Shown piece after piece: positions 40,871-64,000 of a stretch of DNA of 64,000 nt. The notes under the pieces were generated by a model that was given only the letters and a program-made list of their open reading frames with translations, ran no database searches and had not been told where the DNA came from. The position numbers and the translations under genes are program-made. Source of the stretch: Escherichia phage vB_EcoM_Lh1B; sequence record OK428535.1; one strand, written 5' to 3'. Numbering within the stretch: the stretch's first letter is position 1; each line of letters starts with the position of its first letter.

Positions 40871-40879
40871 AANAAATTN

Positions 40880-40908: not shown

Positions 40909-40950
40909 TTCGCCTTGGTATGAATGCCCTTTTCACTATGGAACAGAGCC

Positions 40951-43090: not shown

Positions 43091-43103
43091 GGATTGTTTC
43101 CTC

Positions 43104-43604: not shown

Positions 43605-43607
43605 ATA

Positions 43608-43652
43608 AAAGTACCTCTCTACCCTAGGGTAGAGAGGCCTTTCTTTTTTTGT
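43608..43652. terminator. bidirectional terminator between convergent genes
   Basis: Hairpin CCTCTCTACCC-TA-GGGTAGAGAGG with A-run before and T-run after. Confidence 0.7.
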
Positions 43653-43653
43653 T

Positions 43654-45438: not shown

Positions 45439-45508
45439 GGTCTACTCTCAAATATGGTGTCTGCTATACTGATTTGTGGGTAACGTATTTTCTAAAAGGA
45501 ACGTCTAA

Positions 45509-46861: not shown

Positions 46862-46876
46862 GTAAGGGTACTTAAC

Positions 46877-47320: not shown

Positions 47321-49050
47321 GCATGGAAATGACAGGTAACGCCACCCACCCCAAATGGCGTTTGGGGGAGATCGGTGAAGTCCTGCGTTCACGTATGGCC
47401 GAGCGTATTGATTCTGNCANCCANCTCAATCTGTACATGCAACGCAACGAAGCCGACTTAATCTACGGCTCTCGACTGATTCTGCAAATAGACGCGATTC
47501 TTGATGAGGTGCGACGCGCTGGCCTATCGAAAGATGTCGCTGTCGCTGTTGAATCTTCCCGCCCAGGCACAATTCCCGAAGCTGTCCGCAAAATCCTGAC
47601 CTCTAACTATACCCGCACGCACCAGAAAGAGACTATTGTTGCGCTCGAGTCCTGGGCAAATGCAGGTAAAGTGGGATTGGTTGTGTTAATCATGACCGCG
47701 ATTATCAAAATCATCGGTTGGATTATCAGCAACGGTAACGGGTTTGCTGGTAATGGCGAATTCGACGGCGAAGGTTACGCTGAGAAAGTCGGCGAAAAAG
47801 CAGAGAGTTTCTCCCAGACCGAAAACACTATCATCGGTCAGCTGAAAATCAGCGCAGTGAAAGATGCATACATCGAAGCCTCTAAGGGTCTGAAAGGTCG
47901 TGACCTGGAAAACCTGAACTTGGCTATCGCGATGGCCGACGAAGTGTTTACGAACATGAACGCGGAAGAGTATCTGAACGACTTGAGCAGCGCGCTGGGC
48001 CGTTCGCCGTTCACTGAATTGTTCAAAGGTTACACTAAGAAACGCCAATCGAGCCAGCAGGTTATTCACGACCTGTTAGATACCCTGTTACAACACAACG
48101 TAACTTACGGTATCTATCCGATTGAGGTGGGTAAGAAAGCCTGGCAGGCATTGCCGAAGTCTGCACGTGAAGCCGGTGTACGTATTCCGAACCTGTTGAA
48201 CTTCCAACAGATGTCGAATGTTGCCAGCGAACTTATCGGCTACTTTGGCTCCCTCCAAAGTGCCTTTAAAGCAATGATCGACCCAAGCGTTGCCGAGGGT
48301 TTTAAGAATCAGCAAGGTTCAACCACTACCCATAACGGTAAGCAGGTCAATAAAGCAGCACACGACACCGCGCTTATCTTCGGCCAGGCGTTAGCGCAGC
48401 TGAACACCACGATGAACTTCATCATCAGCGACGTTTCCCGCAAAGGATTCGAATACGCTACTGCACCTTTGGTCGTTATCCCAGAAAACAAAGTTCGCGG
48501 TTTAGTGGGTCATGACGATGGTGTGGACTTCGTGCCTGGTAAGGTATTGGTTAATGCACAAGCATCGGCGTTCTTGGGACGTGAATGCTTAGAGCAAATG
48601 CGCCAAGCGGGCACGTTATCGGTTGGCGACGAACGTGAGCTGCTGGCCGTGGTAGTAACGCTAGGTAAACAAGGTTTTACTAACGACACCGCCGCGACTA
48701 ACCTGAACCGTTACAGTGCACTGGATAAGGCGGTTAATAACACGATTAAAGTGTTGGAGCAGTTCCAGAAAGCAACCAAGGATAACGCTGAATACGTTAA
48801 CCTGATTAGCGAAGTCATTATGAACGAGCTTAATCAACCTTCTGGTCTGCGCACCGACGGTCGTGAACTCTCGATGGTGTTATTCTCCCCAGACGGTGAT
48901 GAAGACCTCTTCGTCGGCTTGCGTCGTAACCTGTCGTTGGTGCGTCGTTGTTGCGGTGCTGCCGCTACACTGCAGACGATACTGAACCTGGCCAAACGTA
49001 ACCCGTTGGTGAAAGGCAATAATCGCAAAAACATGCTTGACGGCGAATAA
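47317..49050 (+). CDS. hypothetical protein with one predicted transmembrane helix
   Basis: 577-aa ORF, ATGA overlap; hydrophobic segment KVGLVVLIMTAIIKIIGWIIS. Confidence 0.55.
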   Translation: MSMEMTGNATHPKWRLGEIGEVLRSRMAERIDSXXXLNLYMQRNEADLIYGSRLILQIDAILDEVRRAGLSKDVAVAVESSRPGTIPEAVRKILTSNYTRTHQKETIVALESWANAGKVGLVVLIMTAIIKIIGWIISNGNGFAGNGEFDGEGYAEKVGEKAESFSQTENTIIGQLKISAVKDAYIEASKGLKGRDLENLNLAIAMADEVFTNMNAEEYLNDLSSALGRSPFTELFKGYTKKRQSSQQVIHDLLDTLLQHNVTYGIYPIEVGKKAWQALPKSAREAGVRIPNLLNFQQMSNVASELIGYFGSLQSAFKAMIDPSVAEGFKNQQGSTTTHNGKQVNKAAHDTALIFGQALAQLNTTMNFIISDVSRKGFEYATAPLVVIPENKVRGLVGHDDGVDFVPGKVLVNAQASAFLGRECLEQMRQAGTLSVGDERELLAVVVTLGKQGFTNDTAATNLNRYSALDKAVNNTIKVLEQFQKATKDNAEYVNLISEVIMNELNQPSGLRTDGRELSMVLFSPDGDEDLFVGLRRNLSLVRRCCGAAATLQTILNLAKRNPLVKGNNRKNMLDGE

Positions 49051-49052
49051 AA

Positions 49053-49098
49053 TAAAAGGCTACCCTCTCCTTCGGGAGAGGGTAGTGCTTTTTTTATT
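49053..49098. terminator. bidirectional terminator between convergent operons
   Basis: Hairpin CTACCCTCTCC-TTCG-GGAGAGGGTAG with A-run before and T-run after. Confidence 0.7.
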
Positions 49099-52054
49099 CT
49101 TTTTCGGTATCGTGACGGTTGTACGACAGTACGATGTCATCTTTCAAACCGATGTCGCCGTTGGCTTCAATATCGAGTTTCTTACCAATTGTAGCTCGCG
49201 CTGCTTCGGTAATGACAGTGAACAGTCGCAGGTCTTTATCTGGCCCCATGTCGTCGAGTTCAACACCGATAATGGCATCGTTAAGCGTATTGCGTAACGC
49301 ATTACCGATCTCGGTTGCTGAAACGGTCAGATGTGTTGACAGATAGTCGTTAATGACTTGCGAAGTCCGTTTCCGGATTTGTGCCAGAAGCTCGCTGTTT
49401 GCTCGGTTCGCTGCCGTGAGGTAATATTTGACAGTGAACTGGTTTTCAGCAGGCAACGGTGACACAACTCCGTCTTCGGTACGTACATCGATATAACCCA
49501 TCGTGGTAATAGGAACAAAGAAGCCTTCAGTTTGCTCCAACAGCAGCGGTTTCAGATTCGGTAGTACCACCGTAACGTAGTTGATGATATTGTCAATCAC
49601 GCTATCAAGGTACGCTTTAACCGCTTTCGAGGTTGCGAACTTATAACGGGCATCGAAGACAGCCATTTCACTACGGAACTTAATACTGCGCGGCTTCGCA
49701 ATAATAGGCTGACCGTTCCCGTCGAAGATTTGTTCCCCAACGTGGTGTGCGATTTCTTGCTCACCGGTGGCCGGGTCTATTTTCGGATCGCCTTTGCGAT
49801 GCAGGTACGTGATTTGCAACGGTGGAACAGCATCAGGGTCGTACGTGTACTCAGGTGTTACGCCATCGTCTTTGGTTTTAATAACATCCTTTTCCCAATA
49901 CGCCAGAACGTCCTCCTGGTAGTATTCGTAGTTGATGCTGTCCGTTACTGCACGTGCTTTTCGCCNGTAATAGGACATGGCTTTACCCAGCTCGATTTTG
50001 AAAATCTCATGAGTAATCCCAATACCATCACGCGCAGGTGGTACAATCATTGTATCCATTTCAGCACGTTCGTAATTACCGGGGTAGTAACCCGTACAGC
50101 CGTAGAACACGTTATACTCGGTTAACAACGGTGCAGGTGTGTCCACATCCACTTCGGTGGTGATTCGGGTGTTGTTGATAATCAGCTCATCGTTACGGTC
50201 AACGTCGAGATTGGTTTTCAACAAGAATTCCCATACACGCTCCGAACCTTGACGACCCACTAAGGTGCCGTTGATGTACNCCAACTTACCGTNNGNGTTA
50301 CGCGGCGAGAAGGAAATCTGCGCAAAGACTTGGTCATCACTTAACGCCTGGTATGGCGGTTCTGATTTAGTCACAGTGCGCAGGATATAACCTTCGGCCG
50401 TTTTCTCAATCTGATAATCTGCAGTGACAACACTCAGCTCCGTTGTCACGTTGGTGCTAACGAAACGTTTTGAGTTCAACTGCGGTTTATCGAGTTGGTA
50501 AATACGAACATCGCAAGATTTGTTGTTAATGTCCACCACGTAATGGAACGGCGTGAACAGGTAACGGTTAGTGTTACCCGCGTTAACCAAATCTTCTTTA
50601 CGCATGGTCTTCGCAAGGATGGTCATCTCCGCATCGATTTGTAGACTGGTATCCGTAAAGCGATACAGCGTATCTGGCTCAATTGTCAAACGGTTGCCGT
50701 TAATACGGACCGTCGGCAGTTTCACCAGTTCATCCCAGCTAAAGTACAGCGGGGCGGTGATGGTCCCGATAGGGGAACTCACTTTAGATAACGTGGATTC
50801 CGGCATCGGCGCGGTCAGGAAGTAAGTACGCCCAGTTACGTAATCGTTCGGCTTAGACAAGGTCAGGCCGTAATCCGATACCGTGGCTTCTAACTGTTTC
50901 TCTGTTACTGGCAGTTTGCGAATCCCCACTGCATTGTTTACCANACGGTCACGCAACTCATCAAACGAAAGTTGTGTACGGCCCCCGGTGGCGTAACTGC
51001 CTTCTTCCGCAACCAGCATTTTGATGGAGAATGATTTCAACGGGTTGATGTATCCCGCATCGTATTCACCGTTCAAGTCTCGCAATGAGAAGGTGTACTC
51101 GTCCGCCGGGAATGCAGAAACGTCGAGGTCGAGTGGCCCGATGGTCGTATATACGTCCATGCGGATTTCACCACTTACCAGGTTCTTCGCCATGTAGATA
51201 GACGGTATCGTACAACGAATGGACTGGTTAACGACTTGAATCAGCGCCGTAGGCGTGTTTGGATCGTAAACGTCACGACTGTGCGTGTGGTGGATTTCTG
51301 TCCAGGTGTTTGAATTGGACGGTTTATTCCACACCCGTGCGTAGAAGAACTTGTTGGTGAACGTGCGCGTCATCACAAACGTGTTCTGCCCCAACAACGT
51401 ATCGTTCTCGTCCTTTACACTGTACTGCATCACCGGAATACGGATAGCCAGTATCTGCGACGGTGTGCTAGGAACACTTGTCAACTCCCAGTCCAACGCG
51501 TTAGTGGTTACGGGCGATATCGGTGACTGAGTTTCGGTAATCCACAAGACCTGGAAGGCTGGATTATCAACGGTACCATACGGCAGCACTCGAATTTCGA
51601 TAGGATACTGGATGGCAAAGTTGTAACCTGAAACAGTAAAGACGGTATCCCGTGGAATCACGACTTTACGAATACCTGCCACGTTTAACGGCATCGCCTT
51701 CGCTAATAGAGAGTCGACATCTAGAAGCAGCAGTAAGGTCGCTTGTGATGGCTGGGCAAAAACATCGACATAATCCACGTCAGACATGTGGCGGAACAGA
51801 TCGTCGTGAGTTTGTGCCATAGAGGGGAACATTTTCGGAATGGTGTCCCGATCGCCCTGGATAATAGTGTGGCCCATCGTAATTCCGACCTCGGTCATGT
51901 AGACCACCGGGTCGGTCGGGTCACGTAGCAGAATTTGCCCGTCGGCGTCCTGCACGTCTTGGAGCTGGTTCAGCATTAATGACTGCATTGCCGATGGGTT
52001 ATGTGCCATCAGCAGCAAGTCTTTCGATAATGCGTCGTACGTTTTCGTAGTCAT
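49094..52054 (-). CDS. large hypothetical protein (possibly structural)
   Basis: 986-aa minus-strand ORF, 1-nt TAATG coupling with upstream ORF. Confidence 0.6.
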   Translation of the reverse strand: MTTKTYDALSKDLLLMAHNPSAMQSLMLNQLQDVQDADGQILLRDPTDPVVYMTEVGITMGHTIIQGDRDTIPKMFPSMAQTHDDLFRHMSDVDYVDVFAQPSQATLLLLLDVDSLLAKAMPLNVAGIRKVVIPRDTVFTVSGYNFAIQYPIEIRVLPYGTVDNPAFQVLWITETQSPISPVTTNALDWELTSVPSTPSQILAIRIPVMQYSVKDENDTLLGQNTFVMTRTFTNKFFYARVWNKPSNSNTWTEIHHTHSRDVYDPNTPTALIQVVNQSIRCTIPSIYMAKNLVSGEIRMDVYTTIGPLDLDVSAFPADEYTFSLRDLNGEYDAGYINPLKSFSIKMLVAEEGSYATGGRTQLSFDELRDRXVNNAVGIRKLPVTEKQLEATVSDYGLTLSKPNDYVTGRTYFLTAPMPESTLSKVSSPIGTITAPLYFSWDELVKLPTVRINGNRLTIEPDTLYRFTDTSLQIDAEMTILAKTMRKEDLVNAGNTNRYLFTPFHYVVDINNKSCDVRIYQLDKPQLNSKRFVSTNVTTELSVVTADYQIEKTAEGYILRTVTKSEPPYQALSDDQVFAQISFSPRNXXGKLXYINGTLVGRQGSERVWEFLLKTNLDVDRNDELIINNTRITTEVDVDTPAPLLTEYNVFYGCTGYYPGNYERAEMDTMIVPPARDGIGITHEIFKIELGKAMSYYXRKARAVTDSINYEYYQEDVLAYWEKDVIKTKDDGVTPEYTYDPDAVPPLQITYLHRKGDPKIDPATGEQEIAHHVGEQIFDGNGQPIIAKPRSIKFRSEMAVFDARYKFATSKAVKAYLDSVIDNIINYVTVVLPNLKPLLLEQTEGFFVPITTMGYIDVRTEDGVVSPLPAENQFTVKYYLTAANRANSELLAQIRKRTSQVINDYLSTHLTVSATEIGNALRNTLNDAIIGVELDDMGPDKDLRLFTVITEAARATIGKKLDIEANGDIGLKDDIVLSYNRHDTEKE

Positions 52055-53316
52055 TACAGTAAGCCCGCTCGTTTAAGGATGAATTGGTAATCTGCCTGAT
52101 AAACATACCAGGTCAGTTTACGACGCAGGGAGTCGATGTGCGGATAGCCGTAGTAGTTGAACAGCGGTAGTAGCTGTGGTGCAATCGGCACAAGCTGGTC
52201 TTCAGCAATCGGGATAAAGTTGCCCGCTGCAACACTCCCTGGTTGCGGCATCATATCCGGGTTAAACATAGACACCGTCAAGTTGAACATCTCCATGTAC
52301 AATGGGTCATCGAAGCGCGCCCCGATACATTGCCAGTTGAGGTTAATTGTGGTGTCGTCATTTAATTGAGGCTTGGTGTTATCGACATTCGCCATTTGAC
52401 CGGCGTTATCGTTCATCGGCCAACAAACACACGCTGTCCAGAAACGAGTGATGTTTCCGAGCGCGTCGTATTTAAACCCGTACATCCTCGACTGGTAGTC
52501 AATGCGGCGTTGGATGGAGTTACGCATCTTCGGTTTGAACTTACCCATCTTAATGCCGGACATATACTCCAGCCACACGCCCATCATTCGCATGATAGGG
52601 TTGCCGTATGGGTTGTTCAGCGACATCGACATACTGTACTGGTTATTGATTTCATGTGTGGAGTCAACCATACCCCACTGTTCGCGCATTAAACCTTCTT
52701 CAGACATCCAGTTATCGACAGACTGGTCAGGCATCCCCGAGAGGCTCAGCATCTGCGTACTCAGCAATGGTATGAATGCCTGAAGATTGTCAAACATAAT
52801 GTCCTTCATGAATGGCGTGCCCAAACGGTTCTTTCTTCGCCCATCTTCCATCGGTGAATCAGAGAACCCCAATTCAAAATCTGGGTCTAACGCTGCCAGA
52901 ATGGAATAGTCGAGTGACGATTTCGGCTGAGAAGCCATGTTCGACATCTTGCGCGAGTTGGCAATGTTGTCAAAGCACAAGTTGAAGTCAGGGCGGGTAA
53001 TGAAGGTTAGGCCACCGTACTCACGGTTAACAGGCGTCGGGTTCGACGCCATCATATGGTTGAACCCCATGTAGGGGTTGGTCACACGCTGCGCAGCCAG
53101 ACCCAAACCTAACGTAAGACGGATACGGTCATTCCAACCCGATAACTCATCATTAACGTTGTACGCCGTGGTGGGTTTCGCATCGGACAGTCGACGGTCA
53201 AAGTAGTCGGCGACCGATGGTACTGCATCGATATTATTCGGGTTTTGATACGAATTGTCGTAGTCGGTATTCGGGTCATACCCCGGATCGTTCTTATCGG
53301 TCTCGTTACTCATCAT
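52054..53316 (-). CDS. hypothetical protein
   Basis: 420-aa minus-strand ORF, GGAG upstream. Confidence 0.6.
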   Translation of the reverse strand: MMSNETDKNDPGYDPNTDYDNSYQNPNNIDAVPSVADYFDRRLSDAKPTTAYNVNDELSGWNDRIRLTLGLGLAAQRVTNPYMGFNHMMASNPTPVNREYGGLTFITRPDFNLCFDNIANSRKMSNMASQPKSSLDYSILAALDPDFELGFSDSPMEDGRRKNRLGTPFMKDIMFDNLQAFIPLLSTQMLSLSGMPDQSVDNWMSEEGLMREQWGMVDSTHEINNQYSMSMSLNNPYGNPIMRMMGVWLEYMSGIKMGKFKPKMRNSIQRRIDYQSRMYGFKYDALGNITRFWTACVCWPMNDNAGQMANVDNTKPQLNDDTTINLNWQCIGARFDDPLYMEMFNLTVSMFNPDMMPQPGSVAAGNFIPIAEDQLVPIAPQLLPLFNYYGYPHIDSLRRKLTWYVYQADYQFILKRAGLL

Positions 53317-53338
53317 TAACTCCGGAGTTTAGTTAAAA

Positions 53339-54457
53339 ATGGCAGAAAAAACATTTGAGACATCGCTCGTCTCCTTTCTTTCTAAGTTTCCCATGCTGCT
53401 TCGCCAGCGGGCGGAATCGACGGAAGAATTCAACTCTGTGCTGTACAACGAGCACACCACGNTGGTTGAANAAAGTCTGTTGGGCTTAGATTACCTGCCA
53501 GGTATTCTGGAGAAAATCCAAATCCTGCTCGCGGGCAACCAACTTACCGCCATCTCAATTCTGGTAGGTGTTCCTGAGGTTGATATCCTTGGTACGCTTG
53601 ACCAGGTTAGCACCCGTCGTAATGCCCTCGATGCGGCTGCACGTTCGGGTTCTCGCTTAGCGTCTTTCGCAATCGGCGAGTCCTCCCGTCACGCGCTGCC
53701 GTCATACGATAAAATCGGGCTTGCGGTCGGTGAATCCCGTCGCCAGAAATCCGATAACAAAGTAGCGACTGAATCGTCCGCAGGTTCTGTGCTGCCGAAC
53801 AACACGCTGAAGCTCCTGCATGATCAAGAAGGTCTGTCCAACGGTAAACTGTTCTCTGTTACCTTCGAACGTGACGGTAATAAAGTCGAGCTGCCAATGC
53901 GTCTACGTCTTGATGTGAAGTCTCTGCCGACCGANGAAATGAAAACGNTCATTGCGTTCAGCGATCAAACCAAAACCTTCTGGGAACGTGTGCTGCGTGC
54001 GAAGGTCGGTTCTCTCAGCTACGCGAAAGATATCGCGCTGTGTAATGACCTCATTGAAGAATACCGTAAGAACCGCTTCCGTGATAAGTCCGGTTATTAC
54101 CGTAAGATGATGGAAAAGAAAAACGCCAACTGGCTGTCTGGCCTGCTGACGCTGAGCCCATCCATCAACAACGCGTCTTCGGTTATGGTGGTTTCTCAAG
54201 AAACTATCGACGATCTGACTGCTCAGCTGGGCGGTGACTTCGATGATTACAATATCCGCCAGCGTGTGTTCAAAGACACCCTGACTGTTTACTACGTGGT
54301 TGTCGACCAGACCTGGAACCGTGTAACCATTTATACGCGTGGCCAGACCGGGTCTCAAGAACTCGACAAATCAGACTTTAGCAAGGCGAAGTCCGGTAGC
54401 GGCGATGTAAACAAAATCATCGATGCCTATCGCGTCGGCGCGAATCCGGTACTGTAA
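53339..54457 (+). CDS. hypothetical protein, probably abundant
   Basis: 372-aa ORF with optimal codon usage; diverges from minus operon across a 22-bp palindromic spacer. Confidence 0.6.
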   Translation: MAEKTFETSLVSFLSKFPMLLRQRAESTEEFNSVLYNEHTTXVEXSLLGLDYLPGILEKIQILLAGNQLTAISILVGVPEVDILGTLDQVSTRRNALDAAARSGSRLASFAIGESSRHALPSYDKIGLAVGESRRQKSDNKVATESSAGSVLPNNTLKLLHDQEGLSNGKLFSVTFERDGNKVELPMRLRLDVKSLPTXEMKTXIAFSDQTKTFWERVLRAKVGSLSYAKDIALCNDLIEEYRKNRFRDKSGYYRKMMEKKNANWLSGLLTLSPSINNASSVMVVSQETIDDLTAQLGGDFDDYNIRQRVFKDTLTVYYVVVDQTWNRVTIYTRGQTGSQELDKSDFSKAKSGSGDVNKIIDAYRVGANPVL

Positions 54458-54467
54458 GGGGAAAAGA

Positions 54468-55400
54468 ATGCCGATTCCGAATATGTTGGCGATGTTGCTG
54501 CCGAGCTTCGAAGCCACGAACTTAAAAAACCAACTGTCATCTAACTGCGACTCGATTGCTGCGTTAGAGCCACAGTTCCAGAACCTCCAGGAACTGGTGG
54601 GAAGTGTCCAGGGTAAGCCATTTAAAGCGAAGCCTGTTGCAGACCTTTCTACTGAAATCGTTAAGTACCTGCATAGCTCCGGTTTGGAAGTTAAAGGGTT
54701 ACGTAACGCAAGTATGCTGGAGTACGTCATCGCGTCTATGCAGAACGTACAGGCGCTGCGACCTTTCCTGGAGCAGTGTATCGACCGCGACATCGGGAAG
54801 ACGTTGGTGACATCATCTCTAACGTTCAACAAACAAACCGTGTTGCAGTTGCTGGATATGATCGAATTCTTCGTCGGTTACGCTAGCACCCTGATTAACT
54901 ACATCACGGCCGAAGAGATTGCCGCTGTACAAGACTCGAACATTGCAGTGAAGGGAATCGGTCCGAAAGACCTTCAGTATCTGCAAACCCGTAAGACGTC
55001 TTTCTGTATTGCGGTGCGCGTCCTGGCAACCCCCATTACCAAACTGAAAGCAGACTACGCTGAGATACCTGAAGCGGTGTTTGACGAAGAGACATATAGC
55101 CAATTGGTTCAGCAGTTCGGTTCGAACACCACTGATCCACTGGGTATGTCCTCCGTTCCGTTCCCGCTGTCAATTGTCTACCGCGTGCGTCTGAATATTG
55201 CAGAATGGCAAATGGATCGTTATGACGAGTGCGTGGAAGCCGCGAAAGCGACTGAGCTGCGTATTCTGTTGTACAAGAAACAACAGGCTGCCGGTGAAGG
55301 GGACGTGCACATTGAGAAACTCATCGAAGCACACGAAAAGCGCTTGATGGAACTCAAGTACAAACGTGAACGTCTGGAGAAAAAATACGGTCTGGTTTAA
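54468..55400 (+). CDS. hypothetical protein
   Basis: ATG at 54468 after AAGGGGAAAAG (MPIPNML...). Confidence 0.5.
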   Translation: MPIPNMLAMLLPSFEATNLKNQLSSNCDSIAALEPQFQNLQELVGSVQGKPFKAKPVADLSTEIVKYLHSSGLEVKGLRNASMLEYVIASMQNVQALRPFLEQCIDRDIGKTLVTSSLTFNKQTVLQLLDMIEFFVGYASTLINYITAEEIAAVQDSNIAVKGIGPKDLQYLQTRKTSFCIAVRVLATPITKLKADYAEIPEAVFDEETYSQLVQQFGSNTTDPLGMSSVPFPLSIVYRVRLNIAEWQMDRYDECVEAAKATELRILLYKKQQAAGEGDVHIEKLIEAHEKRLMELKYKRERLEKKYGLV

Positions 55401-55423
55401 GGCCGTATTATCAGGAGAGTCTC

Positions 55424-55981
55424 ATGTTTGACAATGACCAGAATTTTAACCTCGCCGAGAAGTTGATTAAAAACTACATGGCGAAACTGACCCAAAACCC
55501 CGTGCTGGTTCATGACGACGAACTGATACATGAAACCCTGGAAGCTGCAGCCGTTGTGCTGCCGTATTTCCGCATGATGGGCGCTGACTCTGTCCAACAA
55601 GTATTATATGACGAATATCCGCAGGTCGGTTTTACGTTTAATACGTTTTATAACGAATCTGCATCGTTCATACTTGACGGTAAACGCCGTACAGTGTCAA
55701 CAGGACAGTGGTCCGTTCTTCTGGTATCGTACATGAACGATATCCACTCTACTAAGCAAGTAGAGCGAACCGGTTCCCTGGGCTCACGACTTCTTGCTGC
55801 GGCTTACGGTCGTAGTGGGCAAGTTCGCCATATGGGAACTGCGCATCAGACGTACACGCCTGACCGGCGTCTATTATCTTATGCAGACCACGAACTGCTG
55901 GCACGTTGGTTGACACGTCCGAACGGGTTATCCGATATGATCTCGTCGTTAGCAGTGTTTTTAAAAATCGCACGTCCCTAA
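55424..55981 (+). CDS. hypothetical protein
   Basis: 185-aa ORF, AGGAGAG upstream. Confidence 0.5.
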   Translation: MFDNDQNFNLAEKLIKNYMAKLTQNPVLVHDDELIHETLEAAAVVLPYFRMMGADSVQQVLYDEYPQVGFTFNTFYNESASFILDGKRRTVSTGQWSVLLVSYMNDIHSTKQVERTGSLGSRLLAAAYGRSGQVRHMGTAHQTYTPDRRLLSYADHELLARWLTRPNGLSDMISSLAVFLKIARP

Positions 55982-56037
55982 GGGGGCCCCTTATCTAGGG
56001 GCGTGTAATTGGGTTATAACCAAAGGAACCGAAACAA

Positions 56038-57315
56038 ATGGCAAACTTTGTAAAAAGTAAACTCGCCCGCGAGTCCGTTGAAGCTACCGGCGACGTAATC
56101 GACGGTCTGAGCAACGTTGAACCGGCAGAAGAGAACATCGACGTTCAGCTGGCAGAAGTTGCGTCTATCGACGGTCAGCTGGAACAGCTCGATGGTGACC
56201 AGGAAACCCTGGCTGCTGATACCGAGTGTACCGAAGCTGCTATCGACGCTGCTGACGAAAAAATCGAAAACGGTGAAGAGATGCCTGAAGAAGCCATCGC
56301 TCACACCGAAGTGGCGCAGGAATCTATCCGTAAACGTTGGGCTATCGATCGTACCAAACTGGCACGCGAATCTTATCGCCGTGGCCGTGGCATGACCAAA
56401 GCAGCTCAGGAAGGCTGGAAAGAAACCCTGAAAGATCTGTTCAAGCGCTTCGTTGAACTGTGTAAAGCAGTTATCGCGAAAGCGAAAGAGCTGAAACTGA
56501 AATACATCAACGTTGGTAAGTCTGCACAGAAACGTGCGAAAGCTTACCAAGAGATGCTGCGTAAGCTCGGTAAGCAGAAGAAAGAAAACATCTCTGGCGG
56601 CTTTATTAGCAAACTGTCTATCGAAGGCGACTTCGATGTGGCCAACTCCATCGCTATCGCGAAAGAGCTGACCGGCGGTAAAGCGAAAGACGCTATCAAC
56701 AAGCTGTCCTCTCAGGCGTCCGAATCTGCTGTAGCGATCACCAAAACCGCAGAAGGTACTGCAACGGCTGCTAAAGGCGCTGTTGATGTTGCCCTGTTCG
56801 GTACCGCTGCTAAGAAACTGCGCACCCTGCCGCAGTTCGAAGATGGCGAAGGCGGTCAGAAAGTTCTGGCACTGCCAGGCAACGCCTATGTGCAGATCGG
56901 TAGCAAAACTCTGGCCGGCGGCCAGGACTTCACTGCGGTGGCGTTCCTGTCAACTGGCGACTCTACCGACACGAAAGAGATTGCTACCCCGGCAATTACC
57001 GCACTGGCGTCTGCAGCAACCGCTCTTGATGCGATCGGTAAAGGCTTCGAGAAAGTGCTGCAGGACTTCCGCTCCTATGACGCCGATGTTGAGAAACTGG
57101 AGCAGGCTGCTAGCAAAGCTGCTGCTGCCCTGGATAAATCCAACGACGAAGGCGAGTGGGAAGCACTGCGTAATGCACGTACTGCAGCCGACCAGGCTGT
57201 GCGTAACTACCAGACTCTGAACCGTGCCGTGGCGCATGTTGGTAACACTGTTATCAGCGGCCTGAACGGTTACATCGGTGCTGGTATCGGCGCGTACGAA
57301 AAGTCTAAAGCTTAA
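56038..57315 (+). CDS. acidic alpha-helical protein, paralog A (probably abundant)
   Basis: 425 aa; starts MANFVKSKLARESVE, contains AQESIRKRWA and LGKQKKE..SGGFI, ends GAGIGAYEKSKA; optimal codons. Confidence 0.65.
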   Translation: MANFVKSKLARESVEATGDVIDGLSNVEPAEENIDVQLAEVASIDGQLEQLDGDQETLAADTECTEAAIDAADEKIENGEEMPEEAIAHTEVAQESIRKRWAIDRTKLARESYRRGRGMTKAAQEGWKETLKDLFKRFVELCKAVIAKAKELKLKYINVGKSAQKRAKAYQEMLRKLGKQKKENISGGFISKLSIEGDFDVANSIAIAKELTGGKAKDAINKLSSQASESAVAITKTAEGTATAAKGAVDVALFGTAAKKLRTLPQFEDGEGGQKVLALPGNAYVQIGSKTLAGGQDFTAVAFLSTGDSTDTKEIATPAITALASAATALDAIGKGFEKVLQDFRSYDADVEKLEQAASKAAAALDKSNDEGEWEALRNARTAADQAVRNYQTLNRAVAHVGNTVISGLNGYIGAGIGAYEKSKA

Positions 57316-57392
57316 TCCGCTTTACGTACCAAACGTCGGTTGACATATCATTACAAACGGCACGCGTCTTATCGCCTAGCGGACCGAAAAAG

Positions 57393-58652
57393 ATGGCTAA
57401 CTTTGTAAAAAGTAAACTCGCGCGTGAATCTGTCGAAGGCACAGGTACTGTCGTTCCGGACGGTATCGAGCTGCCGGCTGAGTCCGTAGAAGGTACTCTG
57501 GCTGACATCGAGCACGACACTAAACCGATCGACCAGCTGGATGCTGAAGCAGATGTGCTGGCAGAAGACGGCGACGAAACCGACGCGCAGCTGGATGCAG
57601 TTGATGCTGCTGAAGCTGCTGCTGACGGTGAAGGTGAAGATGGCGAAGAGCCAATGGAAGTGGAAGAAGATATGCCTGACGAAGCTGCTGAGCAGCTGGA
57701 CGTTGCGCAGGAATCTATCCGTAAACGTTGGGCATTCGACCACCGCGTAAGCGTTGCGCAGGAATCTTACGGTGCACGTAAGCGCCGCCAGGTTGCTCGT
57801 GAAAGCCTGTGGGACGACATCAAAGCGTTCCTGCAGCGCATCTACGACTGGCTGAAAGAACAAGGCCGTAAGGTTAAAGACCGTTGGCTGAAGTTCAGCA
57901 ACCAGGGTAAATCCATTCAGGCGCGTGCTAAGAAATATGACGCTGCTCTGCGTGGCCTGGGCAAGCAGAAGAAAGACACCGTTAGCGGTGGGTTCATTAA
58001 GAACCTGACCACCGGTGGTAAGTTCGTCGGTGACGACATCAACGTCCTGAAAGAGCTTCTGTCTTCTATCGGCAGCATCTACGGTGAGCAGGATGCAGTT
58101 GTTGCAGCCGCTACCACTATGGTTGGCGCAGTTGAGGCTGGCAAACGGGTTGGCGGTTTCGCAGCAGCGGTTAACAAAGCAACTGCAGGTAAAGCGGGCG
58201 AAGTTCAGCTGCTGGGCAACCAGATCGGTAAAGCCGAAGTGAAAGTGAACGGGGATGACCTGGAAGCTTCCTTCAATGTTATCGACGCCGAAGGTAGCGT
58301 AGAGCAGTCTGTTTCTACTCCGTCTCTCACGACTCTGTCTTCCCTGGTTGCGTTCTTCAACCAGCTGGGTAAAGCAGTCGAAGAGAACGTGAAAGCATAC
58401 CACAAAAATAACCAGGCTCAAGAGCGTTACGAGCAGGCTATTGAGAAACTGCTGAAACGTATCGACGGCGTGAAGATCGACGACAACGCAGAACTGACTT
58501 CCAACGTCCGTGTTGCACGTCGTGCAATCACCGTTGCGAACCAGTACATCTCCTGGACCGAACGTTGCGTTGCANCCGGCCANAAAAACCTGATCGCCGG
58601 CGTTAACGGCTACATCNGCGAGGGTATCGGTGCGTACGAAAAGTATAAGTAA
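57393..58652 (+). CDS. acidic alpha-helical protein, paralog B (probably abundant)
   Basis: 419 aa; same N-terminus, internal blocks and C-terminal GIGAYEKYK as paralog A. Confidence 0.65.
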   Translation: MANFVKSKLARESVEGTGTVVPDGIELPAESVEGTLADIEHDTKPIDQLDAEADVLAEDGDETDAQLDAVDAAEAAADGEGEDGEEPMEVEEDMPDEAAEQLDVAQESIRKRWAFDHRVSVAQESYGARKRRQVARESLWDDIKAFLQRIYDWLKEQGRKVKDRWLKFSNQGKSIQARAKKYDAALRGLGKQKKDTVSGGFIKNLTTGGKFVGDDINVLKELLSSIGSIYGEQDAVVAAATTMVGAVEAGKRVGGFAAAVNKATAGKAGEVQLLGNQIGKAEVKVNGDDLEASFNVIDAEGSVEQSVSTPSLTTLSSLVAFFNQLGKAVEENVKAYHKNNQAQERYEQAIEKLLKRIDGVKIDDNAELTSNVRVARRAITVANQYISWTERCVAXGXKNLIAGVNGYIXEGIGAYEKYK

Positions 58653-58663
58653 TTAGACTGGCG

Positions 58664-58703
58664 AATCCCCCACTTCGGTGGGGGATTTACCTTTTCTTTT
58701 TTT
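58664..58703 (+). terminator. rho-independent terminator
   Basis: Hairpin AATCCCCCAC-TTCG-GTGGGGGATT then T-run. Confidence 0.7.
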
Positions 58704-58725
58704 GTCTCCGATTACAANAATTTTC

Positions 58726-58750
58726 AGATATATATTACCTAGGTGAGATT
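58726..58750 (+). promoter_or_regulatory. promoter-like motif AGATATATATTACCTAGGTGAGATT
   Basis: Near-identical to the copy at 4801; 40 nt upstream of ATG 58789. Confidence 0.5.
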
Positions 58751-58788
58751 GCATTGGTAATCTTTTAACCGACTATCACTTAAGGAAT

Positions 58789-59550
58789 ATGAAAATGAAA
58801 ACTATCAATCTGCTTACTCTGGCTAATGGCTCTATCGAACGTAGCGAAGATGACGGTGCTATCCTGCAAGCAACCAACGGCTTTAAAATTATACTGTCCC
58901 CAATTCAATTCACCGGCTTACAAGTCTGGCTGCGCGAAATCAACAAACGCAAACTACCGCGCCGTATGGCGGTTGGCGACCTGCTCTTTACACTGGATAA
59001 CGTTGACGGTGTTAAACCGGAACTGTACGAAGTTCAGTACAAAGCCGCAGTCGATACACTGCGCCTGAAGAAAGGGGAAGAAATCAAATTCATTCCGGTG
59101 ACCTATAATGGTAACAATTACCTGCAGATGGAAGACACTCCGTTCGCTGCGCACGTCACTGACACTGCTGTTGAATTGGTCATTGCCTTTGGTCTGGTTG
59201 CGACTCCGGCGGTACTGGAAATCAGCGAAGACCCACTGCAAGATTTCGGTACGCTGTTCGATACCATGCTGGGTGGCATGAAGCTCGGGAATATCACCAA
59301 GGTCATCCGCCGTATTCCGATTCTGAATGCGCAGCCGAAAGTGATGACCCTGGCAGAAAGCATGATGGAACACCCGGAGCTGACTGCTGAAGAAATTCAG
59401 GCGCAAGAAGACGCAATTGAAGAAGAACGTCAGAACGCCCAGCGTGAAGCCATGAAGCCGTTCCGTGGTTTCCTGGATGCTATCTTCGACTGTGCGAACT
59501 CGCTGATGAAACCAGTTGAAGTGAAAACCGCTGAAGAACCAGCAGCGTGA
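58789..59550 (+). CDS. hypothetical protein
   Basis: 253-aa ORF behind TTAAGGAATA site. Confidence 0.5.
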   Translation: MKMKTINLLTLANGSIERSEDDGAILQATNGFKIILSPIQFTGLQVWLREINKRKLPRRMAVGDLLFTLDNVDGVKPELYEVQYKAAVDTLRLKKGEEIKFIPVTYNGNNYLQMEDTPFAAHVTDTAVELVIAFGLVATPAVLEISEDPLQDFGTLFDTMLGGMKLGNITKVIRRIPILNAQPKVMTLAESMMEHPELTAEEIQAQEDAIEEERQNAQREAMKPFRGFLDAIFDCANSLMKPVEVKTAEEPAA

Positions 59551-59608
59551 ATATCACGTTACCCTCAAACCCTATGCAATCGACCATTAATCTTAAGGAG
59601 TATTTATA

Positions 59609-60154
59609 ATGAAACGTGTCAATCTTAAAGATATTATTAGCGTAAGTAACGATAAATCATCGCCCCTTTGGGATGAGGTTACTACGCTGCAATTTAGTAC
59701 CAGTGTCATGGCAATCCCACGTCCAGTTATGATTGGTCTGGGCGTATTCATTTTAGAATGCGACCGTCGTTCAGCAGGCACGCACATTCTAACGTACGGT
59801 GGGTACGAGTTTGTCGTCGAAAGCGAACTTAACAAACATTGCTCAGAGGGCATCATCGGTCTTTGGAAATACTTAATCGATGCGGGATTGTCCGACATGT
59901 CTAAAGTCTGTAGTCACGATTACGGTAAGTTGGAACATTTTGTTCGTCGTAACGGTGAGCGTGTTCCGGTGACGATTGATGGTTACCAGACCAAAATGGT
60001 CACCGCGCCTTACAGCGCTGAGGGGATACGTGCAACGCTTTACATTCGCCAGACGCTCGTACGTGATGACCTGTTAGACGAAGCAGAGCAAACTCTACAT
60101 GGTCGTGTTGTGAACCTCGCACCGTCTTACGACGCGCAGCGTATGGTTCAATGA
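59609..60154 (+). CDS. hypothetical protein
   Basis: 181-aa ORF behind CTTAAGGAGTATTTATAATG. Confidence 0.55.
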   Translation: MKRVNLKDIISVSNDKSSPLWDEVTTLQFSTSVMAIPRPVMIGLGVFILECDRRSAGTHILTYGGYEFVVESELNKHCSEGIIGLWKYLIDAGLSDMSKVCSHDYGKLEHFVRRNGERVPVTIDGYQTKMVTAPYSAEGIRATLYIRQTLVRDDLLDEAEQTLHGRVVNLAPSYDAQRMVQ

Positions 60155-60160
60155 TTTAAT

Positions 60161-60190
60161 AAGGTGGCCTAACAAGCCACCTTCTTTTTT
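60161..60190 (+). terminator. rho-independent terminator
   Basis: Hairpin AAGGTGGC-CTAACAA-GCCACCTT then TTTTTT. Confidence 0.7.
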
Positions 60191-60198
60191 GGGATTGT

Positions 60199-60573
60199 GT
60201 GATGACTGATAAATTTAAATTTGAGATGACGCCAGAAACCGCAAACGTAGAACCGCAGATTCGCCTCCGTGTACGAGATGACGAATACTGTCTAGCGATA
60301 GTTGAAGAAGACCTGGCAGAGGCCTTGTTGCTGCTCGGCGACAGAGAATGGCTTGGCACGCTAACTATTAGGCTTAAGAGGCCGTTGGTTGGTAGTGGGA
60401 TGTTTGCAGGTTGCTGTACGAACAGTCTGTTGGTCGAAGTGGATGCCAGAACGGTATCACTGTCGGTGATTCTGGACTATCCGGTGACATTCTCGTATAG
60501 CCGTCTTGAATTTAGTCGTTATTTACGTCGCGCAATGAAAGAATTATCTAAAGCACGTAGGAGCAAACCATGA
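60199..60573 (+). CDS. hypothetical protein
   Basis: 124-aa ORF, coupled (ATGA) to the DHFR gene. Confidence 0.45.
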   Translation: MMTDKFKFEMTPETANVEPQIRLRVRDDEYCLAIVEEDLAEALLLLGDREWLGTLTIRLKRPLVGSGMFAGCCTNSLLVEVDARTVSLSVILDYPVTFSYSRLEFSRYLRRAMKELSKARRSKP

Positions 60574-61121
60574 AACTCTCTATTATCGTCGCGATGGACC
60601 GCAACAACGCCATCGGTAAAAACAACGAACTGCCGTGGCGTCTGCCTGCCGACCTGGCTAACTTTAAGGCAATCACCACAGGGAAGAACGTTATCATGGG
60701 CAGTAAGACCTGGGAATCGTTAGGTTGTCGTCCTTTGCCTAACCGCGGCAACTTAATTGTTACTCGTAACCCAGAAGGGTATATCAGTGGCCGGGAAGAA
60801 CACACGGACATGCGTTTGGTGACGTTTCACACGAGTATTGATTTAGCCATCAAAGCTCTGGAACGTATCGAGAAAGATACCGGGAAAGAGCAAGAGGTGA
60901 TGATTATTGGCGGCGCATCAATTTATCAACAAACCCTCGCTCGTGCGGATCGTATTTATCTATCGCGTATTGACATTGCTGTTGAAGGTGCAGATGCTTT
61001 CTTCCCAGAAATTGACAGAGATGTTTTTCAAGTCGATTACACCATGACCCATTTACCCGACGGCCAGAAACACACGCACCGTTGGACGTATCAAATTTTA
61101 AATCGTATCGCTGGAGTTTAA
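60570..61121 (+). CDS. folA: dihydrofolate reductase
   Basis: MKLSIIVAMDRNNAIGKNNELPWRLPADLANFKAITTGKNVIMGSKTWESLG..RPLPNRGNLIVTRN matches the DHFR N-terminal fold signature (cf. E. coli FolA ...[42 protein letters not shown]...). Confidence 0.9.
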   Translation: MKLSIIVAMDRNNAIGKNNELPWRLPADLANFKAITTGKNVIMGSKTWESLGCRPLPNRGNLIVTRNPEGYISGREEHTDMRLVTFHTSIDLAIKALERIEKDTGKEQEVMIIGGASIYQQTLARADRIYLSRIDIAVEGADAFFPEIDRDVFQVDYTMTHLPDGQKHTHRWTYQILNRIAGV

Positions 61122-61122
61122 A

Positions 61123-61452
61123 ATGGAAAAGAAATCTGTTAAAGGTTACGTGATGGAAGTAACCCCAAAAGCGGCTGAACTGGCGAGAGAATATACCGGA
61201 TGTATCGTGCCACTGACCTCAATCGTGGTGTGTGAGGGTTCCTTCTATCTCATCTTCGGCAGTAATGAGCCGGTCTATGCGTACATCGATGACCCTGATC
61301 AAGTTACAGCCCTCTCTATTGCGATGGGTAAAATGGTATCAGACAAGATGATTGAATTCGTTGTCGGGAAAACGATGGACATTATCCGCAATCCGGTTGG
61401 ACACAGCGGAATAAAATGTAAGAAGTGGCAGCTAGCTTGGCTGGCACATTAA
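61123..61452 (+). CDS. hypothetical protein
   Basis: 109-aa ORF, GGAG upstream. Confidence 0.5.
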   Translation: MEKKSVKGYVMEVTPKAAELAREYTGCIVPLTSIVVCEGSFYLIFGSNEPVYAYIDDPDQVTALSIAMGKMVSDKMIEFVVGKTMDIIRNPVGHSGIKCKKWQLAWLAH

Positions 61453-61479
61453 ACGGTTATCTTCTTAAGGAGTATTAAA

Positions 61480-62070
61480 ATGCTTAGTGAACGTGCGCCC
61501 CGTTTAGAAGCGGCGGTATTGAAAATTGAACGTGTGAATATCAAATTGTTATCGAACGATGTTGGTCGGGCATCGTACAGTGACTTATGGAGTATCCCCG
61601 CACCACCGCGTACGTTGGTGGTGAACTGGTTAACGAATCGTTTGGGCTCATGCGATGTTAAAGCCAAGGATGTCGTACTAACGCTACCTGACGGCAAAAC
61701 AACTACCGGCGATGTGTTGATTGCCAGTGGTTCTAAATTGCGTATGGGCGATATTCGCTTGGGTGAGTCCTATCTTCCGGACGGTATGCGACCTATGCCG
61801 ATTGGCGAGGTAGAAAACCGAATTCTGGAAAAAGAAAGAGTGCTGGCGTTCATACGCCGCCCGCCGGATAGCACGGTGTCGTTTAAGCAACGTAAACCGG
61901 CTGCAGACAACACACCCGTTGTCGAGTGGCTCGAAAAGTATTTTGGCGAATATGGCATCAGTCCTGATGAGGTCATTCTCATCAACGGCCACGCCATGAT
62001 GCCGTTTAAGCCCAGCCCGTATTACACGATGGGACAACTGCGCGCTTCCTTCAAAGGGAAAGCACGCTAA
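61480..62070 (+). CDS. hypothetical protein
   Basis: 196-aa ORF behind CTTAAGGAGTATTAAAATG. Confidence 0.55.
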   Translation: MLSERAPRLEAAVLKIERVNIKLLSNDVGRASYSDLWSIPAPPRTLVVNWLTNRLGSCDVKAKDVVLTLPDGKTTTGDVLIASGSKLRMGDIRLGESYLPDGMRPMPIGEVENRILEKERVLAFIRRPPDSTVSFKQRKPAADNTPVVEWLEKYFGEYGISPDEVILINGHAMMPFKPSPYYTMGQLRASFKGKAR

Positions 62071-62074
62071 AGTG

Positions 62075-62103
62075 TGGGGGACTTCGGTCCCCTTTCTTTT
62101 TTT
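62075..62103 (+). terminator. rho-independent terminator
   Basis: Hairpin GGGGGAC-TTCG-GTCCCC then T-run. Confidence 0.7.
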
Positions 62104-62144
62104 GCGTTTTAGGCCAGTGATATGACTACAACGAGGGACAGCTA

Positions 62145-63647
62145 ATGCAACAGTATTTTGAAATTCCATCGTTGGACAAGACCATGCGCAAAGCTGTGGT
62201 CGACGGCGTCGTAGAACGTGTGCTAAACGAATCTGGTATTGAACGTGCCAGTGTTGTTTTCACGGATAGCTTCAACACCGCCCATCAGCCAGGCTCTACG
62301 CTCGGCGATGAGACACCGGTGGACTATTCAGCACCGAACCGTGTCTACGTCGAAGTGGAAGAAGAACGTGATGAACGCGCACGCATTAACCGTCAAGTTG
62401 GGTTAGCGGCAGAGATTCCATTCTTCCATAACCCCGAAGACCAAGTACGCGCCGCTCCTGTCCGCGTAATGTATAACGTGACTATCACGCTACGGCGTGT
62501 CGGCCCATCGCGTGACGAATTGTTACGTTGGGCGAACCGCCTGGATTCACTTATCGACATGGGTCGCTATTCAACCATGACGGAATCCGAAGCGTACTAC
62601 TTGATTCCAAAACCTGCGCTTAAGCTATTGAACGAATGCTATATCGCCGCAGGGACCCGTGTGCCGAAATACGATGACTTTAAAGATTATCTAAAGGCGC
62701 ACTTCACACCCGACGTTTTCACCACAGGTAATGTTGCCGGTGGTCAGAATGTCTTAGCGGTACGCTACGCACCAACCCGTATCGAGACGGTTTACGATGT
62801 TATCTCTCCTACCTGGGATAACGACGAAAACCGTTACGAGACCAGCTTCGTTATACGCTTCTCATATCAGCGACCCGAAGAGGTGGTGATTACCTACCCG
62901 TACATTATCAACCAGACACCGTTGCCTGATGAATGGTGGCCTGAGATAGACCCACCGTTTGTGAGTAATGAAGAGGGCGTGCAACGTCACCAACAGCAAA
63001 AGAACCTTGACGGCACTTGGTGGATTAATGAATCTCGCCAGTTCTTACGCCTACCGTATCTGCTGTCACCGACAGAACAGTTTGAACGTACACACTCGCC
63101 GCTAAAAGCAAAGCTTCTGCATGTGTTCGGCACCGATGTAGCATTCGGTGAAGAAAACATGACCGATCCTGAAGTTTGTAGCATTGACGACCTGCCGTAT
63201 GTTTGGAACGCTGAGGTGGTTCCTTATATCGAACACTGCCGCACGATAGACCCGACAGGTCAGACGGGCATTATCCGTATGGAGTTGTTCGAGAACGGTC
63301 AAATCATTGAACCACGTTTCTACCATTGGGAAAACGGTGTCTTCTCGCTACGTAACCGTGAAGTTCATGTCGAGAAAGCGTACTACTTAACAGAGTCGGC
63401 AATACACGACTGGCGTAATCTGGACTTATGGCCACTGCATCTTTATCCAAAAGCGGCAAAAGTGCTTATTGAGTGGTTATTCCCAGATTGGGATTGCCCG
63501 GATTGGTGGTGGGATAAACCTGTGTTACCACCAAGTGTGATTGATGAAATCACGAAGTTCTATCGCCGTGTCCTGTTGACGCAATTTAATACCACGATTA
63601 TAGCCATCAGAGGAGCCGATAATGCTCAAGGCGAACAAGAGGGGTGA
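62145..63647 (+). CDS. hypothetical protein
   Basis: 500-aa ORF, GAGGGA upstream. Confidence 0.55.
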   Translation: MQQYFEIPSLDKTMRKAVVDGVVERVLNESGIERASVVFTDSFNTAHQPGSTLGDETPVDYSAPNRVYVEVEEERDERARINRQVGLAAEIPFFHNPEDQVRAAPVRVMYNVTITLRRVGPSRDELLRWANRLDSLIDMGRYSTMTESEAYYLIPKPALKLLNECYIAAGTRVPKYDDFKDYLKAHFTPDVFTTGNVAGGQNVLAVRYAPTRIETVYDVISPTWDNDENRYETSFVIRFSYQRPEEVVITYPYIINQTPLPDEWWPEIDPPFVSNEEGVQRHQQQKNLDGTWWINESRQFLRLPYLLSPTEQFERTHSPLKAKLLHVFGTDVAFGEENMTDPEVCSIDDLPYVWNAEVVPYIEHCRTIDPTGQTGIIRMELFENGQIIEPRFYHWENGVFSLRNREVHVEKAYYLTESAIHDWRNLDLWPLHLYPKAAKVLIEWLFPDWDCPDWWWDKPVLPPSVIDEITKFYRRVLLTQFNTTIIAIRGADNAQGEQEG

Positions 63648-64000
63648 TACTAAATTCGTTCCTGTTGAACCNNAAATTCCGATTAACAATAAACCGCAGG
63701 NCGGGGTNAAAGAAGCCAGCAACTTGGTAACGATTCCAACCCGCACCACGGTAACGGACTTCGACAGGATTCCGAAACAGTATCTCCTGCAATACAACGA
63801 AGGTTCTGAATGGCCGGTTGATTTTTATCACGCGTTGTCGGGTCGCAACGATCCGAAGACGATGTTCGATACTCAGAATGACAGCCCTACGCAACAGCTG
63901 CTTAAGATTGTTAATCTGTCATTACGTGTTAACGCACCGCTCGACCGTACGCAGGACGAACAACGTAAGACTTTCGAACTGACCGGGACGTCGACCCTGG
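63621..64000 (+). CDS. hypothetical protein, 3'-truncated by window end
   Basis: ATG at 63621 with GAGGAG 9 nt upstream; frame open to the end of the window (contains N calls); not in the supplied ORF track. Confidence 0.4.

Follow-up and report, generated by a model that had tools for sequence, protein, structure and literature searches.

A tandem gene pair of Escherichia phage vB_EcoM_Lh1B very probably encodes orthologs of the SPN3US internal head proteins gp53 and gp54

Escherichia phage vB_EcoM_Lh1B (sequence record OK428535.1) carries two adjacent genes with similar products, here genes 1 and 2, in the 64,000-nucleotide stretch of DNA analysed in this study (the window), and the locus raises the question of what these two proteins are, how old their duplication is and what they do in the phage head. 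An initial annotation, made from the sequence alone, had proposed two adjacent open reading frames (ORFs) of about 420 amino acids (aa), and both were located at exactly the coordinates given there, on the + strand (Table 1). The window comes from an SPN3US-like, nucleus-forming jumbo phage of the genus Seoulvirus, and the two genes very probably encode its two major internal head (‘ejection’) proteins, the orthologs of SPN3US gp53 and gp54.

Identity of the gene pair

The DNA of the region was 98.7% identical to that of the Salmonella phage SPFM series and 94.5% identical to that of Salmonella phage SPN3US (genus Seoulvirus). Protein 1 was 95.5% identical to SPN3US_0053 and protein 2 was 93.1% identical to SPN3US_0054, and the gene order matched. 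Both proteins matched Pfam family PF12699 (phiKZ_IP, ‘phiKZ-like phage internal head proteins’; gathering score 27 bits), protein 1 with 260.2 bits (expectation value E 4.8e-77, profile positions 2–387 of 387) and protein 2 with 186.4 bits (E 1.3e-54, positions 2–385 of 387). Both also matched phrog_2497, annotated as ‘internal head protein’, with E 1.9e-150 and 503 bits for protein 1 and E 4.4e-134 and 449 bits for protein 2. In the family tree described below, each protein of the window adjoined its SPN3US counterpart, in clades A and B (each recovered in 200/200 bootstraps).

The likeness to gp53 and gp54 extends to the lengths (425 and 419 aa), the tandem order, the neighbouring genes, the 15 N-terminal residues and the five cleavage sites of the prohead protease gp245 that were mapped by mass spectrometry (MS). 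Mismatches to the SPN3US proteins numbered 19 in protein 1 and 29 in protein 2, clustered in the variable middle and fell in no cleavage motif. Three of the 29 are X residues that result from N bases in gene 2 (58575, 58583, and 58617), which leave the frame intact. The few C-terminal differences of gene 2 from SPN3US lie beside these N bases, in a part where its residues are unlike those of every relative, and may be artefacts of sequence quality. The sequence holds nothing that contradicts the identification.

N bases were also seen elsewhere in the window, 133 of them in 109 short runs within 38524..63708, mostly as singles in a few clusters (38.5–39.0, 40.7–40.9, 44.7–44.9, and 45.5–45.65 kb); they resemble consensus positions left ambiguous or masked, not gaps. 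Several deposited SPFM phage records carry the gp53 gene in fragments.

In SPN3US, gp53 and gp54 constitute ‘paralog family A’ of Ali et al. (2017), both being similar to pfam12699, and each was estimated at >600 copies per capsid (PMC5694885). Published MS of purified SPN3US virions detected both proteins at this abundance (PMC5694885), and their precursors are described for the orthologs as being made late, at levels comparable to those of the major capsid protein. The role guessed from the sequence, that of an abundant structural protein of internal head or inner-body type, was borne out by PF12699, phrog_2497 and the orthology to gp53 and gp54. For the near-identical SPN3US orthologs, earlier publications (2017–2023) already cover the gene pair and its paralogy, the identical N-terminus, the high abundance, the propeptides and the sites of cleavage. 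The discovery value is small, and the locus is of use as a calibration point for reading from raw sequence, since codon bias, paralogy and composition alone led to the correct inference of an internal head protein that is abundant and has an acidic propeptide.

Proteins 1 and 2 were 36% identical over their full length (BLASTP, E 6e-59), far beyond chance. As initially described, they share both termini: residues 1–15 (MANFVKSKLARESVE, hereafter the tag) are identical in the two proteins, and GIGAYEK occurs at 416 in protein 1 and at 411 in protein 2. Two internal blocks had also been proposed. AQESIRKRWA is present in both proteins, as part of VAQESIRKRWA at residues 92–102 of protein 1 and 104–114 of protein 2, while the pattern LGKQKKE.SGGFI proved only approximate, the segments being LGKQKKENISGGFI at 177 (protein 1) and LGKQKKDTVSGGFI at 189 (protein 2), with the common form LGKQKK(E/D)..SGGFI. 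Paralog identity per segment was 94% in the tag (1–15), 27% in the acidic stretch (16–91), 57% in 92–125, 43% in 126–200, 11% in 201–318 and 31% in 319–425.

The claim of a divergent, acidic middle was correct in part. An acidic Ala/Glu/Asp-rich stretch exists, but it lies in the N-terminal quarter (residues ∼16–91 of protein 1 and ∼16–103 of protein 2), between the first two common blocks; the true middle (residues ∼201–318) is the most divergent segment, yet is near-neutral in charge. The precursors had isoelectric points (pI) of 5.3 (protein 1) and 4.8 (protein 2). Acidity was confined to the propeptides (pI 4.1–4.4), whereas the mature parts were basic (pI 9.2–9.3), so that the term ‘acidic paralogs’ describes the precursors only.

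Table 1. Coordinates in the window of the two genes, their parts, the upstream neighbours and the downstream hairpin (aa, amino acids; pI, isoelectric point; E, expectation value).
Feature	Position	Strand	Properties
Gp50 ortholog (gp245 substrate in SPN3US), phiKZ gp89 homolog	53339..54457	+	phrog_3239; BLASTP phiKZ gp89 E 1.6e-32
Gp51 ortholog, phiKZ gp90 homolog	54468..55400	+	BLASTP phiKZ gp90 E 5e-19
Gp52 ortholog, related to phiKZ gp91 vertex-binding protein	55424..55981	+	PF25618 PhiKZ_gp91 30.4 bits (cut-off 27); phrog_8199
Gene 1, SPN3US gp53 ortholog (very probable), major internal head/ejection protein precursor	56038..57315	+	425 aa, 45.2 kDa, PF12699
Gene 1 N-terminal propeptide, codons 1–125, acidic	56038..56412	+	pI 4.36, net charge −16; ARE-12, AQE-95, AQE-125
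Gene 1 mature part, residues 126–425	56413..57312	+	31.5 kDa, pI 9.26, net +8; predicted long-helix bundle and small beta-rich domain
Intergenic spacer, genes 1–2	57316..57392		77 bp; no terminator-like site called
Gene 2, SPN3US gp54 ortholog (very probable), second major internal head/ejection protein precursor	57393..58652	+	419 aa, 45.3 kDa, PF12699
Gene 2 N-terminal propeptide, codons 1–137, acidic	57393..57803	+	pI 4.10, net charge −26; ARE-12, AQE-107, AQE-124, ARE-137
Gene 2 mature part, residues 138–419	57804..58649	+	30.5 kDa, pI 9.23, net +7
Intrinsic-terminator-like hairpin, GAATCCCCCAC-TTCG-GTGGGGGATTT	58663..58698	+	11-bp stem, 6 G-C pairs, loop TTCG, then T-rich run

Age of the duplication and evolution of the tag

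The same genomic setting surrounds the tandem pair in other Seoulvirus phages, in Erskinevirus (Asesino) and in Wellingtonvirus (Kwan and pEa_SNUABM_11), and likewise in Machinavirus (ChrisDB, Huxley, pEa_SNUABM_9, and pSal-SNUABM-04) and Derbicusvirus (CR5, EarlPhillipIV, and Phobos), so that synteny spans five genera. A neighbour-joining tree was built on 387 columns, with the tag excluded and with the single PF12699 protein of Vibrio phage pVa-21 as the root. The gp53-type and gp54-type proteins each formed a clade in all 200 bootstraps, and the internal topologies of the two clades were broadly similar. Since the pair is syntenic in five genera and its members fall into separate paralog clades, the duplication predates the split of those genera. 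The proposal that the duplication was recent is contradicted by these results, as it is by the low identity of the paralogs themselves.

In SPN3US, the identical N-terminus of both proteins and its AXE-12 and SXE-15 motifs were likened in 2017 to T4 capsid targeting sequences (PMC5694885). Among phages, residues 5–9 of the tag vary (VKSKL, AQRKI, AQLKI, AQ(R/K)RA, IQRK(L/V), and MQ(K/Q)RA), and the tag of a Derbicusvirus phage reads MNFMQKRAARESIE. Had the paralogs evolved independently after the old duplication, the identity between paralogs of one phage should equal that between paralogs re-paired across phages. For the rest of the protein the two figures were 0.291 and 0.288 (p = 0.15). For the tag, the within-phage identity was 0.865 against 0.692 ± 0.037 for re-paired sequences, and none of 50,000 permutations reached 0.865 (ten lineages). 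Recent gene conversion across the whole genes was rejected, because paralog identity outside the tag was equal within and between phages.

Codon comparison suggested that the tag consists of two parts. At identical residues, identical codons were used in 77% of cases in codons 1–9, in 43% in codons 10–15 and in 58% elsewhere; relative to this last baseline, codon identity was over-represented in codons 1–9 (p = 0.003) and under-represented in codons 10–15 (p = 0.03; Fisher tests). In the window, codons 3–9 have the same DNA in both genes, including the non-preferred TTT, GTA, AGT, and CTC, and codons 10–14 all differ at the third position. The under-representation in codons 10–15 would mean that selection on the protein alone maintains these residues, and the ARES(V/I)E part, as a protease site, appears to be kept in this way. 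Codons 1–9 may have been homogenised by short-tract conversion or because the 5′ end of the highly translated mRNA is constrained alike in both genes, and the tag as a whole would co-evolve with one shared partner.

The phiKZ locus (NC_004629.1 91652..97605) was compared with the tag-coding positions of the window (56038..56082 and 57393..57437). The tags of phiKZ gp93, gp94 and gp95, which end in SLE, are MSLLKMLDKLSLE, MNLNKLLDSLE and MTFKLNEYLDSLE, respectively, and tags that are specific to a lineage and common to its paralogs appear to characterise the PF12699 family in general. It is a plausible, if tentative, suggestion that the 12–15-residue tag serves as a phage-specific ‘address’ which both paralogs show to one partner, whether the prohead core, a gp243-type incorporation factor or the protease. 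The concerted pattern across genera may be new, as it was not found in the accessible part of the SPN3US literature, and it offers a modest but testable and cheap handle on prohead recruitment.

Processing, fold and role in the head

The gp245 cleavages mapped by MS in 2023 lie after ARE-12, AQE-95, and AQE-125 in gp53 and after AQE-124 and ARE-137 in gp54 (PMC10052503 Table 2). Propeptides of 125 (gp53) and 137 (gp54) residues are thereby lost, leaving mature proteins of 31.5 and 30.3 kDa (PMC10052503), and recombinant gp245 was reported to cleave gp53 in vitro (PMC7411985). Every one of these sites is kept at the same residue number in proteins 1 and 2, so that A-X-E protease motifs are present in both proteins at the positions mapped in SPN3US. 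The mature N-termini are conserved as well, as GWKETLK in protein 1, which equals a semi-tryptic peptide of SPN3US, and as SLWDDIK in protein 2. The P1 glutamates E12, E95, E111, and E125 were invariant across 15 homologs from six phage lineages; among 77 database homologs, E12, E95, and E111 were invariant and E125 was present in at least 90%. Two of the blocks noticed initially contain protease sites, since ARE-12 falls in the tag and AQESIRKRWA includes AQE-95 (followed by SIRKRWA) in protein 1 and AQE-107 in protein 2. The acidic propeptides suspected initially (pI and net charge in Table 1) correspond in position to the N-terminal segments that are removed in the SPN3US orthologs.

An AlphaFold2 model of protein 1, based on a 77-sequence alignment, had a predicted local distance difference test score (pLDDT) of 84 and a predicted template modelling score of 0.83. 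It predicted helices in the propeptide (34–77 and 84–100) and very long helices thereafter (119–175, 201–238, 320–367, and 372–418), together with short strands (177–186) and a beta-rich part (∼277–316) that adjoin or fall in segment 201–318, the one least alike between the paralogs. With the model as query, Foldseek retrieved 100 viral proteins from BFVD (E ≤ 1e-3). Those with names belong to large phages, among them 201phi2-1, PhiPA3, Psa21, Noxifer, Ea35-70 and the Ralstonia phages RSF1 and RP12, and are virion proteins, internal head proteins or uncharacterized proteins. The phiKZ proteins gp92–97, gp162 and gp163 have an alpha-helix-rich fold (PMC11297242), and the helix-rich fold predicted for protein 1 is common to it and these inner-body paralogs. 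A sequence search of the PDB with protein 1 gave no match at E ≤ 1. The phiKZ capsid entry 8y6v models residues 14–84 of gp93 only (PMC11297242) and was not retrieved because gp93 is too diverged in sequence.

The proteins of the window resemble phiKZ gp92–gp97, gp162 and gp163 in Pfam family (PF12699), in helix-rich fold class, in their position downstream of gp89-gp90-gp91 homologs and in N-terminal propeptides that the prohead protease cuts, or here is predicted to cut, after X-E, with one site ∼12–13 residues from the start. They differ in sequence, pairwise identity being only ∼25% (E 1e-3 to 1.5e-5), in the number of paralogs (two here versus seven or eight in phiKZ) and in published copy number (>600 each for SPN3US versus 100–200 each for phiKZ). 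Position P3 of the protease motif is Ala here, whereas it is mostly Ser in the phiKZ tags. The accessible SPN3US literature describes a T=1 shell in an intermediate, and no description of a cylindrical inner body was found in it. In phiKZ, residues 14–84 of gp93 line the capsid interior (PMC11297242), the helix-rich part of gp93 enters the cell with the injected DNA and serves as a marker of the early infection vesicle, and ejection was seen by microscopy for gp93, gp95, gp97, and gp90 (bioRxiv 10.1101/2024.03.24.586471).

A functional likeness to the T4 internal proteins IPI, IPII, and IPIII and their capsid targeting sequence is also apparent, a comparison drawn for SPN3US as well (PMC5694885). 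The proteins of the window are much larger than those of T4, and their propeptides comprise 125–137 residues versus ∼10. Neither protein matched a T4 internal-protein family in Pfam or PHROG, and the resemblance is functional only. The internal proteins of T4 are small to medium-sized and basic, are packaged with the DNA by means of a short N-terminal sequence, which the prohead protease takes off after an X-E motif, and are injected along with the DNA.

As orthologs of gp53 and gp54, both precursors would be expressed at a very high level from the adjacent same-strand genes, would enter the prohead and would together build an inner shell, at >600 copies each if the figures for the orthologs apply. 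The shared tag of 12–15 residues may serve as a targeting or recognition signal, and a gp245-type protease would then cut the propeptides into several pieces. Until DNA packaging, the acidic propeptide could neutralise the basic mature domain and keep it soluble, and it may fill space before the DNA enters. The basic mature parts of ∼31 kDa would remain with the DNA in the filled head, where, in each virion, mature internal head proteins total tens of megadaltons. Part of the propeptide may persist at the inner face of the capsid, by analogy with residues 14–84 of phiKZ gp93, an idea consistent with the unusually many peptides of the gp53 propeptide that are still found in SPN3US heads (PMC10052503). 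On infection, the mature proteins would be ejected along with the DNA and travel with it to the early infection vesicle, in the manner of phiKZ gp93. Bulk charge neutralisation is not the main role of the mature proteins, since >1,200 copies (published copy number) at about +7.5 each give by arithmetic ∼9,000 positive charges against ∼480,000 phosphates in a 240-kb genome.

Several points limit this reading. Ejection of gp53 and gp54 is assumed by homology to the phiKZ inner-body proteins in the SPN3US study (PMC5694885). The fold search beyond the phage family returned generic helical-bundle matches only. No gene for a gp245 ortholog was seen in the window, which covers about the first quarter of the related ∼240-kb genomes, the rest of the genome not having been checked.

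It is also conceivable, although unlikely, that the main lasting function of the pair is capsid cementing, with residues 13–95 bound under the hexamers and stapling capsomers, and with the helix-rich part being secondary. In phiKZ, gp93 (14–84) and gp162 (19–134) are fibre-like staples on the inner capsid surface that start exactly at the first protease site (PMC11297242). Both phage groups have kept this first site, which follows residue 12 or 13, and the persisting gp53 propeptide peptides mentioned above would fit such staples. The SPN3US-type propeptide, however, is strongly acidic and predicted to be helical (pLDDT ∼83–92 at residues 41–100), whereas the gp93 staple has extended arms making beta-strand contacts, and N-terminal sequence similarity to phiKZ is marginal. 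Retained peptides of the gp54 propeptide are not reported in the accessible text on SPN3US, and no capsid map of an SPN3US-type phage with assigned inner-surface densities was found in the literature consulted.

It is highly improbable that the two proteins are classical scaffolds that shape the T=27 prohead and are then degraded and entirely expelled, having no function in either the mature virion or infection. An assembly role is suggested by the T=1 inner shell that gp53 and gp54 form in the ‘mottled’ capsid maturation intermediate and that is not seen in mature heads (PMC7552025), and by the heads of the gp243 amber mutant, which lack gp53 and gp54 and are unstable (PMC5694885). The fold rich in long helices, like that of many scaffolds, and the removal of large propeptides point the same way. 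Against expulsion, the mature parts of ∼31 kDa are reported to rank in the top three by abundance in purified mature virions and in tailless heads of SPN3US, and their presence in hundreds of copies in DNA-filled heads has already been published. According to Heymann et al., the inner shell is remodelled in the DNA-filled head and gp53 and gp54 stay there. Only ∼30% of each chain is removed. A part in assembly is compatible with orthology to the internal head proteins and would be a further role rather than a real competitor to that identification. That the genes encode abundant non-virion proteins, such as a DNA-coating or compartment protein whose head association is incidental, has next to no probability: a histone-like or compartment protein could likewise have a basic mature domain and signals of very high expression, but the genes lie in a head-gene block syntenic with the phiKZ inner-body cluster, head-protease motifs stand at the mapped positions and, in the published virion proteomics, which already refutes the idea for the orthologs, these are present in CsCl-purified virions and heads.

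Gene neighbourhood and expression signals

The three genes upstream of the pair are homologs of phiKZ gp89, gp90 and gp91 (Table 1), and in phiKZ the order is gp89-gp90-gp91 followed by the PF12699 paralogs gp92–gp97. Since PF12699 genes come next in both phages, the head-gene block is syntenic between the two phage groups. In SPN3US, gp50 is cut at ATE-127 (PMC10052503). The start of the gp51-like gene was set at 54468 from the length annotated in SPN3US, the longest ORF beginning at 54423. The match of the gp52 ortholog to the phiKZ gp91 family suggests a capsid-vertex role for this protein, which is annotated as ‘hypothetical’ and is given no such role in the records of SPN3US and relatives that were consulted.

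Highly optimal codons had been noted initially in both genes of the pair, and codon usage proved extreme for the window. The codon adaptation index (CAI), calculated against the E. coli Sharp-Li table of highly expressed genes with manually entered weights, was 0.687 for gene 1 and 0.663 for gene 2, compared with 0.332 ± 0.090 for the 54 other ORFs of the window (z ∼3.8). The effective number of codons, a reference-free measure, was 34.6 and 34.8 versus 51.1 ± 6.0 for the other ORFs. Together with one other gene, genes 1 and 2 had the most extreme codon bias in the window. Their codon usage is that of very highly expressed genes and is a proxy for abundance. Two long antisense ORFs in the two genes, 57369..58421 (− strand, 350 aa) and 56014..56550 (− strand, 178 aa), are shadow ORFs of these strongly codon-biased genes and not separate genes.

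A strong terminator-like hairpin starts 11 nt past the stop codon of gene 2, and a terminator scan of the spacer between genes 1 and 2 found no such site, which suggests that the gene pair closes a transcription unit. A motif resembling the phiKZ early promoter, TATATTAC at 58731, downstream of gene 2, was dropped, as one occurrence in the window compares with 1.37 expected by chance. A scan for sigma-70 promoters gave none above chance and no + strand site near genes 1 and 2. The late genes of phiKZ-like phages are transcribed by a phage RNA polymerase, so that the lack of a sigma-70 site near the pair is expected.

The other gene with extreme codon bias lies at 16806..18659 (+ strand) and encodes 617 aa, with a CAI of 0.665 and an effective codon number of 34.4. 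Its product had phrog_8316 (unknown function) as its sole match, with no Pfam or PDB sequence match. The nuclear-shell protein chimallin was considered for it and rejected, since chimallin of SPN3US is gp244 and the product gave no match in Pfam or by PDB sequence search. The product is conserved in SPN3US-like, Erwinia and Cronobacter jumbo phages, where its annotation is always ‘hypothetical’, and it is presumably a very abundant protein.

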